Sequence record: MH359124
Reading direction: 5' to 3' (one strand)
DNA: 64,000 nt
Source of the DNA: Escherichia phage SF
Every line of letters starts with the position of its first letter. Position 1 is the first letter of the stretch. Below, piece after piece: positions 1,380 to 32,121 of this stretch. A program made the translations under genes and the position numbers. The notes under the pieces were generated by a model that was not told the DNA's origin, searched no databases, and was given only the letters and a program-made list of their open reading frames with translations.

Positions 1380-4300
1380 CTAATTTAACCTGTGGTGGAT
1401 TAATCGGGTCTCTAGGATTTCCCACGTTATCTAACAATCTTTCATTAACAAGCTCTCTAAATCTAGAGAACGTTGTACCTGATGCATCAAATAATGGGCT
1501 CATTGGCTTGCGTCGTTCGGACGGTAATTGTCCTTGGAAAATAGAATTATCATTTTCTTCGTCATAATTTGCAGGTAAAGGGTATTCGATACCGGCATAA
1601 GGACCGGCATCATAAATTACTTCACCTGTAACAGGATTGAATTCTACATTACCTTGAGGGTCTAAACGAGCGACGCGGTCTGCATATTCCGTAGGCAGTC
1701 CGGAATCCCACTTATAATTTTTATATTTATTAATAATAGTTTCAACATGTTTAAGCGTTAATCCTGTGTTAATAAACATTGTTAATAAGGTTATTGCAAT
1801 AAATCCAAATCCTACCGGATGTACAAAACGTAGTACGTCAGATTTCCAACGAGAGGATGGAAGATTTGACTTTATTTTCATGACGTAATAAGCTCTACCA
1901 CGATTAAAATAATCAATAGTGTTTTGGGCAAGTTCTTTACCTTTAATACCGCGAACTATTTCACCTTCAAAATCTGCTAGTCTTTCGGCTTTTACTTCTT
2001 GACCGACTAAAAGCCTACCTAAAAGGTTATGAATAGTCACAGTCCATTGTAATTTACCTTTAGAATAGCTTCTTTCTAAATATGTAACATTACATCTACC
2101 TGTAGCGGTGTATATAGTTTGTCCAACCAAATCTTCACTTATAGAATCAGATTGAATTATGATATCGTACTCTGTTCCAGCAGATGACTCAATTTCCACT
2201 TCAACGTCTTCGTTATAAAGAACTTTAAACAAAAACTTATACGACGCTTCAGTTCCTTTAGTAGAATAAAAATCGTAACTTCTGGACTCAAAGAACCTAG
2301 AAACTAGATCACGTTTCTCAGCATTCAAATAAATGTTCCGTTTATAAATTTCAGACCAAAGATATTCCCATGCGTGTTCTTCTCGTGGGTATTTATTTTT
2401 AATCAAATTCAATAAGTTATTATAATGAGTCCCGTATCCATCAGAAAGATATTGAATATACGCTTCACAAAATGCTTCAAAGTTTGTATTATCCAACAGA
2501 TAAGACTCTGGCATCATTGTAGTGAGTAATGGGCGTAAATCCGGGTCAGCTAGACCTGTTTCTTCAACAGGAACCCAAGAAGTTTCTTTTTCTTGGTTTT
2601 GTAATGAGGAGGTCAAAAATACGTTAGTGGGCTTCCAAATTATAGAAACATTATCTCTAACACGATAACTAAAATCGTAATATGAAATTATTTCACCTGA
2701 TGATTTATAAAACAACATACCAGATGCGTATTTTTTAAATCCAGTGAATTCTATATTCGGCATAACAATCTTACAATCACCATCATTCCAGTATTCATGA
2801 ACTTTACGATCAGGTGAAGTGCTAGGGTGGCTTTCCACTACCTTTGTGTAAAGCAAATCAGAATAAATCACTACCGCTCTATCAGAGTTATTAATCCAAG
2901 AACGTGTGCCTGATTTTCTAGAATAACTAAAGAAAGGTTCTGCATAATACTGCATAGGAGTTGGTGAAAAAGTTTCCCAATTACTTTCTTCGTTTGATGC
3001 GAAAATCATCATATGGTAATGTTTATCTGCGAGCCATTCTCTAGGATATTCATACTTAACTGCTTCTAAAAGTCCATACTTAGATTGCGTTTCTGGGTCG
3101 TCAACAATATCAGATTCTAAAAATTTAAAATTACTAGAGGAGATATAAAGCTCAACACCATCAGTAGACATATTGGTGAAAGCCGGTTCTATACGACGGC
3201 GTTCTTCTTCGGTATTACCAAATATCCTTTTAAATGTTCCAGCGTCATGGTCTAAAACGTATACACCTTTATCAACGGAATCCAAAATAGGCTTTGTTCT
3301 TGGGTCGTCATTAACGTTTTCGACTTCACCAATAATAAGAGCGAATATTCTTCCACCAACAGAATCCATTTTATAACAAACTGCTTTAGGGTTGCCTGTT
3401 ATTGTAAACGTCTCGGGTTCAAACAACCGTTCGGAATAGGTCGGAGATAATGGATCTGAATCAATAGGAGCGTTACTGGTTTTAACGAAGCGAACTTTAT
3501 CTCTGGCCGCAATATAAACATAGTCATCATTACAAGTAATAGCTTCTGCAATACGTGATACGTTTCCTGGTAATGACGCGTATGTACCGAAAATCTCTAC
3601 ATCAAAACCTAAATTTAATCGGTCCCCGATTTTAGCAAACGTTACATCTTGTGAACTGAAACGAACATCATTAGCAGACCAACGAATATCGGATGATTTA
3701 CGCCCGTAAAAAATCTTATCATAGCCGAGCAAATACGTCGTATATTCTGATTGGTAATATACGGTTCGTGAAAGTGGATATCCTACACGGTCATTAAGCA
3801 ATTTAACCGCTTTCCATGTTTGGCCTTTATCATTAGACACTTTTACAATAGGTTGGAATCTTTCAAAAAGGTAAAGAATTCCTTCAGATTCCATTAGATA
3901 TACTCGATTTATATCTTTACATACGTCCTGGATATGCCCCTGGATTTCATGATACTGATTTTCGCCAATTATAAAATTTCTAATCGATGACACATCGGTG
4001 TATGCAGGACTAAATTGGAACGACTCGCTCATCAGCGCTGCCATGATCGTGTCATTATTAAAATCAACGTAGTTGGTATTATTTTTTGTAAATTTTTCAG
4101 AAATAAACTCATTAGCTAATTGCATTTCAATCATATGTTGGAATGTATAAGCGTTTATTTCAAATGTTTCAAACTCTTCGGTGTATCTCCAATCAGACTG
4201 CTCAAATCCCTCCGCTGCTGTAGCCACACGCATCATATATGTTGTTAATGAATTTAAACCAGACTCAAAGAAATTGTTATCAGCGGTATATCCTAAATTA

Positions 4301-13146: not shown

Positions 13147-13458
13147 ATGAAAACCTATCAAGAGTTTATCGCTGAAGCTACTAAAGCCGATAAAAATTTT
13201 ATTATTAACACCACCGGTCCGTTAGATGATGAATACGCTAATGCTATTATTAAGTCAATTTCTAATCAAGGCGTTGAAGTAACAAATTTCGAATATAAGA
13301 AAAATGATACTTATATGATAATTAGTATCAAAAAAGGTTCAAAAGCCAAAATTAAATCCGCATTTGGTGTTATGCGAGTTGACCAAATCGATAACCACGA
13401 TTTTTCACAAACAGGGGCCAAACGCCAAAATACCATTTCTTCTAAAGGCATAAAATAA
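13147..13458 (+). CDS. internal-protein-like injected protein with capsid targeting sequence
   Basis: N-terminus MKTYQEFIAEA equals T4 IP capsid-targeting sequence; 103 aa. Confidence 0.7.
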   Translation: MKTYQEFIAEATKADKNFIINTTGPLDDEYANAIIKSISNQGVEVTNFEYKKNDTYMIISIKKGSKAKIKSAFGVMRVDQIDNHDFSQTGAKRQNTISSKGIK

Positions 13459-13500: not shown

Positions 13501-13519
13501 CAACCAAATGGAACCTAAA

Positions 13520-13783
13520 ATGAAAACTTTCAACGAATTCATCTCAGAATCGTCTGGTGTGAAAATTAACAAAGCGGTCAATCAGGTTATTGCTGATATT
13601 CTTAATTTGTATAACATTGACTTAACTCCGCATATCACGCTTGGTAACAAACGAAACTTTTTCATATTTGACACATCCGAACTTGATGAAAATCAGTTCA
13701 ATAACATTCAACGTTTTGCGAATGATAAAGGTCTTCGACACGAGCCTGGCGGCTATAAAAAATACGCAATATATTTGAAATAA
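13520..13783 (+). CDS. internal-protein-like protein (CTS variant MKTFNEFISE)
   Basis: Start at internal ATG; CTS-like N-terminus; 87 aa. Confidence 0.6.
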   Translation: MKTFNEFISESSGVKINKAVNQVIADILNLYNIDLTPHITLGNKRNFFIFDTSELDENQFNNIQRFANDKGLRHEPGGYKKYAIYLK

Positions 13784-13852: not shown

Positions 13853-14038
13853 ATGAAACGCGCTGAACTGATTCGTAATGTTGCTATAGTAATTGCTTCA
13901 ATGGCTTTTAGTTTTTCGATGTTTGTAGGATTCATTTGTGGACTACTGACAACAACTGAAAACTCTATCTCATTGGTAGTAGCATTTCTAATCGGCTTAA
14001 TCGCTATCGTTATGGATAAAATTGCAAAAGGTGAGTAA
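13853..14038 (+). CDS. small membrane protein (2 predicted TM helices)
   Basis: MKRAELIRNVAIVIASMAFSFSMFVGFICGLL; ATG after GGAG. Confidence 0.55.
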   Translation: MKRAELIRNVAIVIASMAFSFSMFVGFICGLLTTTENSISLVVAFLIGLIAIVMDKIAKGE

Positions 14039-14039
14039 A

Positions 14040-14402
14040 ATGAAATATCATGTATATGCGGATTTTGAAGCAAATCCTTCTAAAGACCATGATTGTCGTT
14101 TGATACGCAGACCATTTGATTCAGCAGCTCAAGCATGGGCTTGGATTAAAACTTGTACTCCTTCTTACACTTTCTTTGAAGTGGTAGATGATAACGGTGT
14201 TCTACATCCAGAACCTACAGAAACTATTAATTTCCTTCTGTTTGCTGGTTACGACTGTTATCCTCTTGGCGGTATTGACGATCTTGTTGCTACAGGAAAA
14301 ACTGTTGAAGCTCTTCGTGAAATCTATAAAAATGCTGAAGAAAATTTTGACTGGTACCAGATTGTCAGTGCACATACTTTTGAAGTGGTGGAACACTCAT
14401 GA
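14040..14402 (+). CDS. hypothetical protein
   Basis: ORF with internal ATG start MKYHVYADFE, phage-typical codon usage. Confidence 0.55.
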   Translation: MKYHVYADFEANPSKDHDCRLIRRPFDSAAQAWAWIKTCTPSYTFFEVVDDNGVLHPEPTETINFLLFAGYDCYPLGGIDDLVATGKTVEALREIYKNAEENFDWYQIVSAHTFEVVEHS

Positions 14403-15288: not shown

Positions 15289-15362
15289 GGCCCTGTAGCT
15301 CAACGGTTAGCAGCAGTCCCCTCATAAGGGAAAGGTTACCAGTTCGAATCTGGTCTGGGTCA
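15289..15362 (+). tRNA. tRNA with anticodon CAT (Met or lysidine-modified Ile)
   Basis: Hand fold: acceptor GGCCCTG/CTGGGTC (one mismatch, one GU), D-loop with GG, anticodon loop CTCATAA, T-arm ACCAG-TTCGAAT-CTGGT. Confidence 0.7.
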
Positions 15363-15368
15363 TATATT

Positions 15369-15445
<77 letters not shown>

Positions 15446-15463
15446 ACTTTAAGTGAGGAAAAT

Positions 15464-15808
15464 ATGAAAGGCAACATTTATCTGGTAGTTCATGATTTAA
15501 CGTTTTATTTTAACGAATATGATACAGTTATTTCTCATCGATTGATTAATTCGCTGTATCAGCATGCCGATTACATCTATGTTCAAAATGAATTTGGTCA
15601 TTGGAAGTTCATTAAAAATCGTTCTGGGTTAACTAGTTTTGAATACTTTGACCGTAAAGACCTTTTAAACGAAATCCCATTGCAACATCGGTTCCAGAAA
15701 CGTGAATCATTATATTATTGCCGCCATATACCAAACGCCGAATGTGTTAATGAAGCGATTAATCTATGGCGTCGGCGTCGAGAGCAAATTGATGATATGC
15801 CAAAATAA
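15464..15808 (+). CDS. hypothetical protein
   Basis: Start moved to ATG after GAGGAAAA (MKGNIYLVVHD); track ORF N-terminal extension overlaps tRNA-Arg. Confidence 0.55.
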   Translation: MKGNIYLVVHDLTFYFNEYDTVISHRLINSLYQHADYIYVQNEFGHWKFIKNRSGLTSFEYFDRKDLLNEIPLQHRFQKRESLYYCRHIPNAECVNEAINLWRRRREQIDDMPK

Positions 15809-15809
15809 G

Positions 15810-16120
15810 AAGCCGGGTCGCTACCGGTAAGTCGTCGGACTGATGTTCCCTGCGTAAGGACTGGTCTTAAATAAATCTTTATGATTTGTTAATATCCCCT
15901 TACATCACAGCAGAAACGGCGCACAGAATTATCGATTCGAGGAAATATCTTTGCCGTAAGCCGAGTAGCGTTTTTGACGGAACGTTCGGATATGGTCGAG
16001 ATATGGCCTTTTAAAAATATTGAGTAGCGTCAACTGCTTAATAACCGGGTTCGAATCCCGGCGTTTCGTACAAACACTTGCCTTAGCAGGTGGAACCCCG
16101 ACAAGGTTGCCGCAAGGCAT
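15810..16120 (+). ncRNA. tRNA-like structured small RNA region (possible rnaC/rnaD-type stable RNAs)
   Basis: No convincing protein ORF; canonical T-arm CCGGG-TTCGAAT-CCCGG at 16045-16061 with possible acceptor pairing CGGAACG/CGTTTCG; multiple hairpins; ends at strong terminator. Confidence 0.35.
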
Positions 16121-16149
16121 AGCCCCTTCCGAAAGGTTGGGGCTTTTTG
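16121..16149 (+). terminator. rho-independent terminator AGCCCC-TTCCGAAAGGTT-GGGGCT-TTTTT (repeat copy 1)
   Basis: GC stem plus T-run. Confidence 0.7.
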
Positions 16150-16193
16150 GCATAATAATAAATAGATAAGTTAATTAACTTAGGAAAAGCAAA

Positions 16194-16658
16194 ATGAAAT
16201 CATACGCCGAATTTTTGACTGAACAATCTAGTTCAGATGTAAAAGCCGCTGCGATTGCAGCAATTCAAGCAGGTAAATATTCTTACAAAGACGCCTCTGA
16301 TGAAGAACGTTTCCGTTTTATTAGAGATTTTAAAGCCGAAGGTTTTACTAATGCTAATACTGTTAGCCGAGTTTTTAAAAGCCTAGCTGCATCAGGTGAA
16401 TTGTTCCAGAAAGCTACAGGTAAAGCACCTGCGCCAAAAGCGGACCCTAAAGCCGCTCAAGAAAAAAATATCGCCAAAGGAATTATTTCTAAGTATGAAG
16501 CAATTCTTAAAGAGCTTTTAGTAATCAAAACAGAAGGCCAGAAACTGGCACGAGCACATAGCTTCAAAGATAATCCTCACGCTCATAGCCTTGAGTATGT
16601 TGAAGATATCCAAAAACTTATTAAAGACCGTATCTGGTCTGCTAAACAAATTAAATAA
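16194..16658 (+). CDS. internal-protein-like protein (CTS variant MKSYAEFLTE)
   Basis: 154 aa, N-terminal CTS-like motif, Ala/Lys-rich. Confidence 0.6.
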   Translation: MKSYAEFLTEQSSSDVKAAAIAAIQAGKYSYKDASDEERFRFIRDFKAEGFTNANTVSRVFKSLAASGELFQKATGKAPAPKADPKAAQEKNIAKGIISKYEAILKELLVIKTEGQKLARAHSFKDNPHAHSLEYVEDIQKLIKDRIWSAKQIK

Positions 16659-16664
16659 TAGAAT

Positions 16665-16691
16665 GCCCCTTCCTTACGGTTGGGGCTTTTT
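16665..16691 (+). terminator. rho-independent terminator GCCCC-TTCCTTACGGTT-GGGGC-TTTTT (repeat copy 2)
   Basis: Near-identical to hairpin at 16121 and 32092. Confidence 0.7.
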
Positions 16692-16804
16692 GGTATCTAG
16701 GCCTTTCCGGGAATCTCTAGGCATCATTTAGTTTATACCCTTTATAATAATATATTATCCTACCTTTTAATTGCCTCTCTCTGCCCTAGAATTCCCCGGA
16801 ACTT

Positions 16805-16862
16805 TTTAAAAATTTTTTTTCACAAAACTGTTTACATCCCTGTTCTTCCGTGGTACTATACA
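16805..16862 (+). promoter_or_regulatory. early promoter with upstream A/T tract (GTTTAC -35, TACTAT -10)
   Basis: aaaaatttttttt...ctGTTTACatccctgttcttccgtggTACTATac. Confidence 0.5.
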
Positions 16863-16901: not shown

Positions 16902-17165
16902 ATGGATAATTACGGCGAACTGTTCAACTTCTTTATGAAATGTGTTCCAGAAGATTTCGGACGTACGGTGAATGATATTAAAGTTATCGGTCCTGAACAC
17001 CCTGTGTATGAAACCTATGCAGTAATGGGTAATGAAGACGGACAGTGGTATACAATTAAAGTTGTGATTAATATGTTCTCGGCCGAAGGCTACGCCAAAT
17101 CGTCTACCAAAGTTTACCATGATAACGATTTTGATGCGGAAGATTATTTCAATAATATGAAATAA
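16902..17165 (+). CDS. hypothetical protein
   Basis: ATG after GGAG; MDNYGELFNFFMKC. Confidence 0.5.
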   Translation: MDNYGELFNFFMKCVPEDFGRTVNDIKVIGPEHPVYETYAVMGNEDGQWYTIKVVINMFSAEGYAKSSTKVYHDNDFDAEDYFNNMK

Positions 17166-24181: not shown

Positions 24182-24670
24182 ATGAATATATTTGAAATGC
24201 TTCGTAATGACGAAGGTCTTAGACTGACTTTATACAAAGACACTGAAGGCTTTTGGACGATTGGCATAGGCCATTTAGTAGCAAAGAACCCATCTTTAGC
24301 CGTAGCTAAAGCTGAACTTGACAGAATGATCGGACGTAAATGCGACGGTACAATTACCCTTGATGAGGCTGAAAAGCTATTTAATGAAGACGTTGATAAA
24401 GCTGTTCGCGGAATCTTGGGTAATGCTAAACTTAAACCGGTATATGATTCTTTAGATGCAGTTCGTCGATGTGCGTTGGTCAATATGGTCTTCCAAATGG
24501 GTGTAGCAGGCGTCGCTGGTTTTACTAATTCTCTTCGTATGCTTCAACAGAAACGTTGGGACGAAGCGGCAGTAAATCTAGCCCAATCTAAATGGTATCG
24601 TCAGACACCTAATCGCGCGAAACGCGTAATCTCAACATTTAAAACAGGAACTTGGAAAGCGTATATATGA
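24182..24670 (+). CDS. e: endolysin (T4 lysozyme, gene e)
   Basis: [32 protein letters not shown]...; near-identical to T4 lysozyme over full length (162 aa). Confidence 0.97.
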
Positions 24671-24948
24671 AAACATATAGTGAATTTTTATCAGAATCTA
24701 TTCTTAACGAAGCTACTGACACCTTTGCAACTAAGCTAGGTGCAGCTTTGGTTGAAGCCGAAAGTCTATTAGCACGTATTTCTGAACTTGCTAGTAAGAT
24801 AGATACTCGCAAATTTGAACGTACAAGCGATATCGTTAAGCTTGAAGCCTTGTTGCGTATGTGCGATAAACCGGAAGAAATCGCCAAGAACGGTTCGCTG
24901 ATGAAACAACGTCTTGAAAAATATATTTCAGGCGCTTCAGAAAAATAG
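24667..24948 (+). CDS. internal-protein-like protein ([13 protein letters not shown])
   Basis: ATG overlaps lysozyme stop (ATATGA); adjacent to e like T4 ipIII/ipII. Confidence 0.6.
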
Positions 24949-25511: not shown

Positions 25512-25814
25512 ATGAAAACATATCAAGAATTTATTACCGAAGCGCGAGTGAGTGCAGGTAAATTAGAAGCCGCTATAAATAAAAAGGCCCATTCATTTCA
25601 CGATTTGTCCGATAAAGACCGTAAGAAACTTGTAAGCCTTTATATTGACAAAGAGCGTATTCTCGCTCTTCCTGGCGCTAATGAAGGTAAACAGGCCAAG
25701 CCTTTGAATGCTGTCGAAAAGAAAATTGATAACTTTGCTTCTAAATTCGGTATGTCTATGGATGACCTTCAGCAAGCGGCTATCGAAGCAGCTAAAGTAA
25801 TTAAAGGTAAATAA
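25512..25814 (+). CDS. ipII: internal protein II-like (CTS MKTYQEFITEA)
   Basis: 100 aa; N-terminal CTS; resembles recalled T4 IPII; next to denV as in T4. Confidence 0.65.
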   Translation: MKTYQEFITEARVSAGKLEAAINKKAHSFHDLSDKDRKKLVSLYIDKERILALPGANEGKQAKPLNAVEKKIDNFASKFGMSMDDLQQAAIEAAKVIKGK

Positions 25815-26085: not shown

Positions 26086-26415
26086 ATGAAAACATATCAA
26101 GAGTTTATCACTGAAGTTACATTATCTGCGGAACAGAAAGCTGCTATCGAAGAAGGTAAAAATCCCAAAGTAACATATAAAGTAAATAGTAAAGGCGTTT
26201 TTGATGGCTTGGTTCAAGACCCTGAATTGAAAAAAGCTCTTTCTAAAACTAATGCGTACTTTGCTCCTAAATTTAACACAGCCGGTGTACTTATTGGATT
26301 GGATGTATTCAACTCTAAAGGTGTTCTATCTAATGCCTTTGGTTATGCCGCTAACAAAATTACTAAAGCCGCATGGGAATCCAATACCAAACAAGCTCAA
26401 AAGCCTAGAGTATAA
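26086..26415 (+). CDS. internal-protein-like protein (CTS MKTYQEFITEV)
   Basis: Start at internal ATG; track N-terminal extension covers the repeated leader; 109 aa. Confidence 0.65.
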   Translation: MKTYQEFITEVTLSAEQKAAIEEGKNPKVTYKVNSKGVFDGLVQDPELKKALSKTNAYFAPKFNTAGVLIGLDVFNSKGVLSNAFGYAANKITKAAWESNTKQAQKPRV

Positions 26416-32091: not shown

Positions 32092-32121
32092 AGCCCCTTC
32101 CGAAAGGTTGGGGCTTTTTTG
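32092..32121 (+). terminator. rho-independent terminator AGCCCC-TTCCGAAAGGTT-GGGGCT-TTTTTT (repeat copy 3)
   Basis: Identical stem-loop to 16121 copy. Confidence 0.7.

Follow-up and report, generated by a model that had tools for sequence, protein, structure and literature searches.

The question raised by this locus is whether a short gene, located between the small stable RNAs and e.8 of a T4-type phage, encodes an internal head protein (Ip) that has so far escaped annotation. It is addressed here within the window, i.e. the whole 64,000-nucleotide stretch of DNA that was analysed, which is of Mosigvirus (RB69/PhAPEC2-like) type. The 154-aa, Ala/Lys-rich protein beginning with MKSYAEFLTEQ that had been pointed out by a sequence-only reading is indeed encoded at 16194-16658 on the + strand, with an ATG start and a composition of 15.6% Ala and 13.6% Lys. 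A Shine-Dalgarno-like AGGA (16182-16185, + strand), read from the sequence, lies 8 nt 5' of the ATG. The small-RNA region that the same reading had placed upstream could be identified as that of rnaD and rnaC when it was aligned with the annotated records of RB27 and T4. rnaD (species 2 small stable RNA; 15806-15926, + strand) is assigned by homology, being transferred from RB27 (L001 3999-4119) by megablast alignment and register. rnaC (species 1 small stable RNA; 15932-16070, + strand), the final gene of the tRNA/small-RNA unit, is likewise assigned by homology, RB27 (L001 4125-4263) and T4 rnaC both aligning there. An Rfam scan returned no family for the rnaC/rnaD region. The gene order on the + strand, as taken from the annotated RB27, PhAPEC2 and T4 records, is 57A, 57B, ipI, trna.4/.3/.2, the tRNA genes, rnaD, rnaC, the gene under study, e.8 and, further on, e and the ipII/ipIII locus. 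The gene thus has the last small stable RNA on its 5' side and, as the next gene 3' of it, e.8 (16902-17165, named from the RB27, PhAPEC2 and T4 annotations). The region is 94-98% identical to that of the Mosigvirus phages PhAPEC2, ST2 and phiC120, and about 84% identical to that of Tequatrovirus phages.

The neighbouring tRNA/small-RNA unit shows some features of its own. Just two tRNA genes, Met-CAU and Arg-UCU, are detected at 15289-15445 on the + strand (ARAGORN, Rfam), as compared to three in PhAPEC2, ten in RB27 and eight in T4, so that this phage has a much reduced set. Inside the unit, between tRNA-Arg and rnaD, lies a 130-aa ORF (15416-15808, + strand) that is RB69ORF150c-like and falls in phrog_3355, annotated as of unknown function; a homolog is present there in T2, and segB in the corresponding region of T4. 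Finally, a metagenomic protein of 94 aa (P0010) consists of a trna.3-like N-terminus fused to the C-terminal 32 residues of the protein studied here, and is to be compared with 14022-14402 and 16560-16658 of the window. This chimera implies a natural deletion of the whole tRNA/small-RNA region, joining both genes.

The leader as a candidate capsid targeting sequence

The first ten codons of the gene (16194-16223, + strand), coding for MKSYAEFLTE, come out of a motif scan and of a weight-matrix ranking as a candidate capsid targeting sequence (CTS), with a predicted gp21 cleavage at L-T-E/Q. The CTS of T4-type Ips is an N-terminal propeptide of 10-19 residues, and the leaders of T4 IPII and IPIII both read MKTYQEFIAE. 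As established by amber-suppressor analysis of the IPIII CTS, targeting involves mainly residues 4 and 7 and processing residues 8 and 10, and the first 10 residues of T4 IPIII suffice to bring foreign proteins into the head (PMC9026906, a review of Black's work). With Y4, F7, L8 and E10, the leader studied here fits all four positions, Y4 and F7 being the same residues as in the IPII/IPIII leader and L8-T9-E10 forming, at the level of the sequence motif, a gp21-type site. Two points count against an internal protein: the leader has other residues than MKTYQEFIAE at positions 3, 5, 8 and 9, and CTS tolerance has been mapped solely for IPIII in T4.

When every ATG of the 64 kb was scanned in six frames, exactly six matched MK[ST][YF]x[ED]F[ILV]xE, all of them on the + strand (13147, 13520, 16194, 24667, 25512 and 26086), and a looser pattern gave no further matches in the window. 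The expectation is 5e-5 matches in the 684 frames that start with ATG and have 40 aa or more. A leader weight matrix was also trained on the five other leaders of the window and on those of T4 IPI, IPII and IPIII, the present leader being left out. It ranks the latter 6th of 684, straight after the five training ORFs, with 20.5 bits for a background of mean -12.4 and sd 6.5. Both the excess of strict matches over expectation and this rank show that the leader does not match by chance; a coincidental resemblance, which the sequence-only reading had named among the outcomes that would undo its proposal, is thus ruled against. The proposal itself, that of a diverged CTS, is supported: the four key positions fit, the leader is one of six in the window, its L-x-E end is kept across genera, and an ortholog was detected in purified fD1 virions (for the last two points, see below). 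One further leader-like sequence, MQLANEFISE at 4125 on the - strand, was rejected as a chance match, since its Met lies within gp7, a baseplate protein of 1032 aa.

The other five ORFs bearing the motif (13147-13458, 13520-13783, 24667-24948, 25512-25814 and 26086-26415, all on the + strand and from the motif scan) are either members of annotated families of internal proteins or located at the two classical, already known Ip loci; three of them match PHROGs designated as internal head protein or internal virion protein. Together with the gene studied here, the phage would therefore carry six candidates for internal proteins, distributed over three loci. For the ORF called at 13508, the start at 13520 (MKTFNEFISE) is probably better than the upstream one (MEPK).

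Predicted flanking terminators and late promoter

The gene is bracketed, as had been claimed, by two near-identical terminator hairpins. The upstream copy (16122-16150, + strand), found by pattern search, has a predicted energy of -18.2 kcal/mol and a U run, reads GCCCCTTCC-GAAA-GGTTGGGGCTTTTTGG, and is predicted to be the intrinsic terminator ending the rnaC unit. The downstream copy (16665-16693, + strand; pattern search and RNA fold) reads GCCCCTTCC-TTAC-GGTTGGGGCTTTTTGG and is a predicted intrinsic terminator as well, located at the right junction of the cassette described below. Both copies are identical at 26 of 29 positions, the stems and T-tails being the same and the loop alone differing. 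A third, near-identical copy (32093-32121, + strand) lies directly 3' of an rI-like gene and is followed by an early promoter (GTTTAC…TATAGT), so that the hairpin is a dispersed repeat in this genome. The pattern has no copy in shuffled sequence, for three in the window, and each of the three is predicted to form a GC-rich stem-loop with a U run after it (-16 to -18 kcal/mol, z -2.6 to -3.05). Furthermore, the annotators of PhAPEC2 marked both homologous hairpin sites as terminators, and the single homologous hairpin of T4 also sits 3' of rnaC.

Hairpin 1 and the ATG are 43 nt apart, and a promoter scan of this interval gave no sigma-70-like promoter. A predicted late-promoter box, AATAAATA, which is a variant of TATAAATA, is present there at 16157-16164 (+ strand), 29 nt 5' of the ATG. 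At the homologous position, directly after the hairpin, a perfect TATAAATA is found in RB27, phiD1, Mineola, VMC04 and WG01 (four genera), AATAAATA being found instead in the Mosigviruses, including the phage of the window. That this box is a 7/8 variant counts against the internal-protein reading. On the + strand of the window, AATAAATA is found three times, in all cases 24-29 nt 5' of an ORF start (this gene, lysozyme e and the rI-like gene), which is the spacing of canonical TATAAATA boxes, and among the variants of T4 late promoters the one with A at -13 is the most frequent, with 9 of 50 sites (Geiduschek and Kassavetis, PMC2988020).

Three of the five other CTS ORFs (13147, 13520 and 25512) have sigma-70-like early promoters, unlike the gene studied here. 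The early sigma-70-like promoter predicted by the scan for e.8 (TTTACA-17-TACTAT, 16831-16859, + strand), which is conserved in T4 and RB27, lies about 140 nt from hairpin 2, outside the cassette. As it has a late box, no early promoter and a hairpin on either side, the gene looks like a single-gene late unit between two terminators. In such a unit, a gp55-type late promoter located directly after the rnaC terminator would drive transcription, the second terminator copy would end the transcript, and the protein would be made when proheads assemble. Late synthesis fits the need of a prohead component.

Presence, absence and possible exchange of the cassette

The gene together with one hairpin copy forms a unit of 543 bp, extending from 16122 to 16665. 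It had been suggested that the gene is an independently acquired cassette, and comparison with related phages upholds the cassette, whose polymorphism may reflect gain or loss alike. T4, T2 and PST lack the gene between rnaC and e.8, the two being separated in T4 by 284 nt without any ORF. The single T4 hairpin is directly followed by GGTATCTAAGCCTTTCC…, i.e. by the sequence located 3' of hairpin 2 in the window and in RB27; the T4 sequence after its hairpin reads GGTATCTA(A/G)GCCTTTCC… and continues as after the second copy of the window. Because the single hairpin of T4 joins the post-hairpin-2 sequence, the gene and one hairpin are polymorphic as a block that is either present or absent, the hairpin marking its junction. 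The junction is thus found as one hairpin in T4, as hairpin-gene-hairpin in the window and RB27, and as three hairpins with two genes in PhAPEC2. Gain or loss of the cassette might proceed by recombination between the hairpin repeats.

In PhAPEC2 and phiC120, the second unit is located right 3' of the gene and is composed of a AATAAATA box, a 187-aa ORF starting with MKTYAEFLTE (PhAPEC2 L002 4985-5548; phiC120 L009 1284-1847) and a further hairpin. The RB69ORF149c-like protein that it encodes (PhAPEC2_133, Shfl2p135, RB14ncORF136c) resembles the one studied here by its slot right after it, its near-identical leader, its own box and hairpin, and its similar length and helical/linker layout, both proteins scoring about 183 bits against phrog_2280. 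They apparently differ in their bodies: 9 of the 10 leader residues are common to our protein and PhAPEC2_133, there is no BLASTP similarity past the leader, and the hhalign probability between leader-trimmed families is weak, from 9% down to 3.5%. The RB69ORF149c-like protein is found in 165 phage records, with at least 95% identity in nearly all of them across Mosigvirus and Tequatrovirus, and is absent from the window. It has the appearance of a second Ip candidate that lacks annotation and has recently spread by horizontal transfer, and no paper mentioning ORF149c was found.

The slot is also occupied in Jiaodavirus VMC04, where the same hairpin, a TATAAATA box and a leader (ATGAAATTTAAAGA…, MKFKDFLTE) are followed by a different, 194-aa body. 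Like the RB69ORF149c-like PhAPEC2_133, this slot protein also scores against phrog_2280. The hairpin, late promoter and leader could thus constitute a conserved 5' docking module placed ahead of differing protein bodies. In the Dhakavirus WG01 (L008 701-1165), the protein is 96% identical to that of the window, versus about 74% for Tequatrovirus orthologs, which suggests an exchange of the cassette between genera. WG01 has an unrelated membrane-like ORF 3' of the gene.

This arrangement is reminiscent of the promoter-early stem-loop (PeSL) model, in which shuffling is mediated by hairpins (Arbiol et al., 2010; Comeau et al., 2014; PMC2839356, PMC4122927). A terminator stem-loop is repeated at indel junctions, in a hyperplastic region of T4-type genomes, and the third copy at 32093, with its adjoining early promoter, shows the classic arrangement. 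In contrast to PeSL, the stem-loop at the gene is coupled to a late box (TATAAATA/AATAAATA) rather than to a sigma-70 early promoter, and the repeat is essentially the hairpin alone, of about 30 bp.

Protein family, virion association and possible role

The protein matches phrog_2280, annotated as of unknown function, with an E value of 1.1e-53 (residues 1-154 against positions 1-172 of a 178-position profile). This is its sole full-length match among PHROGs, phrog_7857 being matched over residues 1-43 at E 0.008. No hit passed the threshold in the Pfam, NCBIfam and PADLOC scans, and no match was obtained in a PDB sequence-profile search. By tblastn, the family is found in 510 phage records, every one of them labelled hypothetical, which span Mosigvirus, Tequatrovirus, Dhakavirus and Jiaodavirus; the identity to the protein is about 99% in Mosigvirus, 96% in the Dhakavirus WG01 and about 74% in Tequatrovirus, and in Klebsiella Jiaodavirus its N-terminal half only is matched. 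HMMER, run exhaustively against 1.84 billion cluster representatives, found 8 proteins only, so that the family offers too little breadth for profile analyses of greater depth.

The AF2 model (pLDDT 78.6) is all-helical, with helices at 13-25, 36-48, 54-67, 85-121 and 128-151. It consists of a three-helix N-domain, a Lys/Pro/Ala-rich linker (72-84) and a pair of long C-terminal helices, the leader being a low-confidence, detached segment. As Foldseek gave insignificant helical-bundle/ferritin matches alone against the PDB (E > 0.5), and just the protein's own family plus one marginal Serratia phage PS2 protein against BFVD, the fold yields no functional lead. IPI* has a solved NMR structure in the literature. 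No similarity to Ip1-3 beyond the leader was detected by sequence-profile, PDB sequence or fold search. Ip1-3 are also unrelated to one another.

Some variants of the protein are truncated. P0007 (108 aa) and P0009 (111 aa, Shigella phage SfPhi01) shift to the +1 frame at an A7 homopolymer inside the gene (16462-16468, + strand), to give …AQEK/ISPKELFLSMKQFLKSF, and P0008 (93 aa) likewise breaks after …AQEK. All three keep the leader, the N-domain and the linker only. They could result from homopolymer sequencing errors or be real truncations.

In the family alignment, overall identity goes down to 33-36% (Klebsiella phages), and the leader ends with L-x-E in every member, in the forms MKSYAEFLTE, MKTYNEFLMTE, MKSYAQFLNE-AVLNE, MLKFNEFLAE, MLEYSEFLKE, MKFKEFLAE and MITFNDILAE; in the Tequatrovirus forms, another L-x-E follows five residues beyond the first. 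Virion proteomics of relatives is available for an ortholog. In Yersinia phage fD1 (phiD1, Tequatrovirus), g140, of 157 aa, is flagged as particle-associated (PPAP) after LC-MS/MS of purified virions (PMC8309999, Table S3). As 113 of the 277 phage proteins, including DenV and NudE, were particle-associated in the same preparation, together with 672 host proteins (PMC8309999), the detection of g140 is weakly specific. These data show that the ortholog is made and co-purifies with virions, and they modestly support packaging. In the part of the CsCl-virion MS table of the ValerieMcCarty Jiaodavirus paper that was covered, the two annotated Ips have 26-66 PSMs and there is no peptide of the VMC04 slot protein (leader MKFKDFLTE), bearing in mind that VMC04-type phages carry a different protein in this slot and not the one studied here. 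The fPS-2/fPS-90 paper contains no virion proteomics.

One reading of these data is that the protein is a late cytoplasmic one, which is not loaded into the head and whose leader is a relic, its DNA persisting only as recombination homology. The four deviations from the canonical leader, the low specificity of the fD1 detection and the missing VMC04 slot protein, as far as that part of the table goes, would be in keeping with it. A relic would nevertheless be expected to decay, whereas the L-x-E end and the aromatics at both targeting positions are kept in homologs at 33-48% identity; in addition, late-only expression suits a head component, and a leader of this length is enough, in the case of IPIII, for the incorporation of a foreign protein into the T4 head (PMC9026906). 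We therefore consider a relic leader unlikely.

Most of the scaffolding core is degraded or expelled during head maturation. The protein could accordingly be an accessory of the prohead core, brought to the scaffold and lost again by degradation or expulsion, i.e. neither retained nor injected. Its leader and cleavage motif, an internal L-K-E site at residues 105-107 and its helical C-terminal half are compatible with such a fate. This L-K-E site is however the only internal one and falls within a long predicted helix, peptides of the ortholog are recovered from mature fD1 particles, and a dispensable, polymorphic gene would be unexpected for an assembly factor. A core accessory is, of the alternatives envisaged here, the one to which we give the least weight, and it appears very improbable.

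The reading that we favour, and that we hold to be somewhat better than an even bet, is that the gene encodes a previously unannotated Ip of T4-type phages, made late, packaged, trimmed by gp21, injected and directed against host defence. The leader MKSYAEFLTE would act as a CTS and bring the protein into the scaffolding core of the prohead, as its sequence suggests and in line with the virion MS of the ortholog. The prohead protease gp21 may then cut after L-T-E10, to judge from the motif, and leave a basic, all-helical protein of about 16 kDa that would be kept with the DNA. This predicted mature form (16224-16658 on the + strand, stop codon included) has 144 aa, 15.9 kDa and, without the first 10 residues, a pI of 9.6, similar to that of the other basic Ips of the window. 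By analogy with T4, it would be injected with the DNA and act at once in the new host. T4 Ip1, Ip2 and Ip3 each inhibit one variant of the GmrSD-type type IV restriction enzymes (PMC12373910), and loss of ipIII stops T4 from infecting ECOR17 (PMC9391042). Inhibition of a first-response defence would, by the same analogy, be its most likely role. As structure and profile searches hint at no function, this anti-defence role is drawn from analogy and is our best guess; the accessory distribution of the gene, which varies between close relatives, fits this guess.

A packaged and processed internal protein could alternatively be a general component of the head, either DNA-associated or charge-neutralising, instead of inhibiting a specific defence. 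This would agree with a mature protein that is basic and Lys/Ala-rich, with its Lys/Pro/Ala linker, and with the lack of similarity to any known anti-defence protein in the PADLOC, PDB-profile and BFVD searches. The gene is however dispensable, as T4, T2 and PST do without it, and its polymorphism and exchange between genera are the pattern of accessory counter-defence genes. Moreover, all three T4 Ips, once considered as general components, are now linked to specific defences (PMC12373910, PMC9391042). To us, a general head component has a low probability, comparable to that of the relic leader.

Compared to T4 IPI-III and Ip4-10, the protein shares the 10-residue MK(T/S)(Y/F)xEF(I/L)xE leader with its gp21 L/I-x-E site. 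It is likewise small, basic and non-essential, its presence varies between close relatives, the leader alone is shared, and several such genes coexist in one genome. It differs by a mature sequence unrelated to any named Ip, by a longer mature form of 144 aa with two domains and a linker (about 76-100 aa for IPI and IPII), by a late promoter only, early sigma-70-like promoters being present at three of the five other CTS genes of the window, and by its third locus, rnaC-e.8, which is not beside 57B or e. Recognised Ip loci adjoin 57B or e, a feature that is customary and not defining. The location of the gene outside both of them counts against an internal protein. Polymorphic Ips of T-even phages, Ip4-10 or IpIV-VI, have reportedly been described (Repoila et al., 1994; Mullaney & Black, 1996). 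One paper refers to "two Ip loci" and to ip1-10, Ip4-10 being without assigned targets (PMC12373910), and its supplements contain none of the characteristic motifs of the protein studied here, so that the rnaC-e.8 locus and this family have apparently not been counted. Neither Nolan 2006 nor Petrov 2010 mentions CTS or Ips. The absence of the family from the laboratory phages T4 and T2 would account for its lack of study.

All in all, the product of the gene is probably an internal, injected protein that had escaped annotation, the gene representing a third Ip locus. A bolder possibility, which we put forward tentatively and would not expect to hold in full, is that rnaC-e.8 is a third Ip locus made of portable hairpin, late promoter and CTS units, which would serve as a natural dock for expression, packaging and delivery. 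phrog_2280 would then be a new class of injected counter-defence proteins, with a target differing from those of Ip1-3, and recombination at the hairpin or at the 20-30 nt coding for the leader would allow protein bodies to be captured or swapped, to be made late, loaded into the head and injected.

Host immunity encounters injected internal proteins before any other phage product, and this family is present in about 510 sequenced T4-type phages, many of which are candidates for therapy against E. coli, Shigella, Yersinia and Klebsiella. The product of this gene, being likely to be injected, is a concrete candidate for a host-range determinant and is useful for annotation. It would extend the pool of Ip genes to a third locus and to a late-only, terminator-bounded cassette design, thus adding to the established concept of internal proteins without overturning it.
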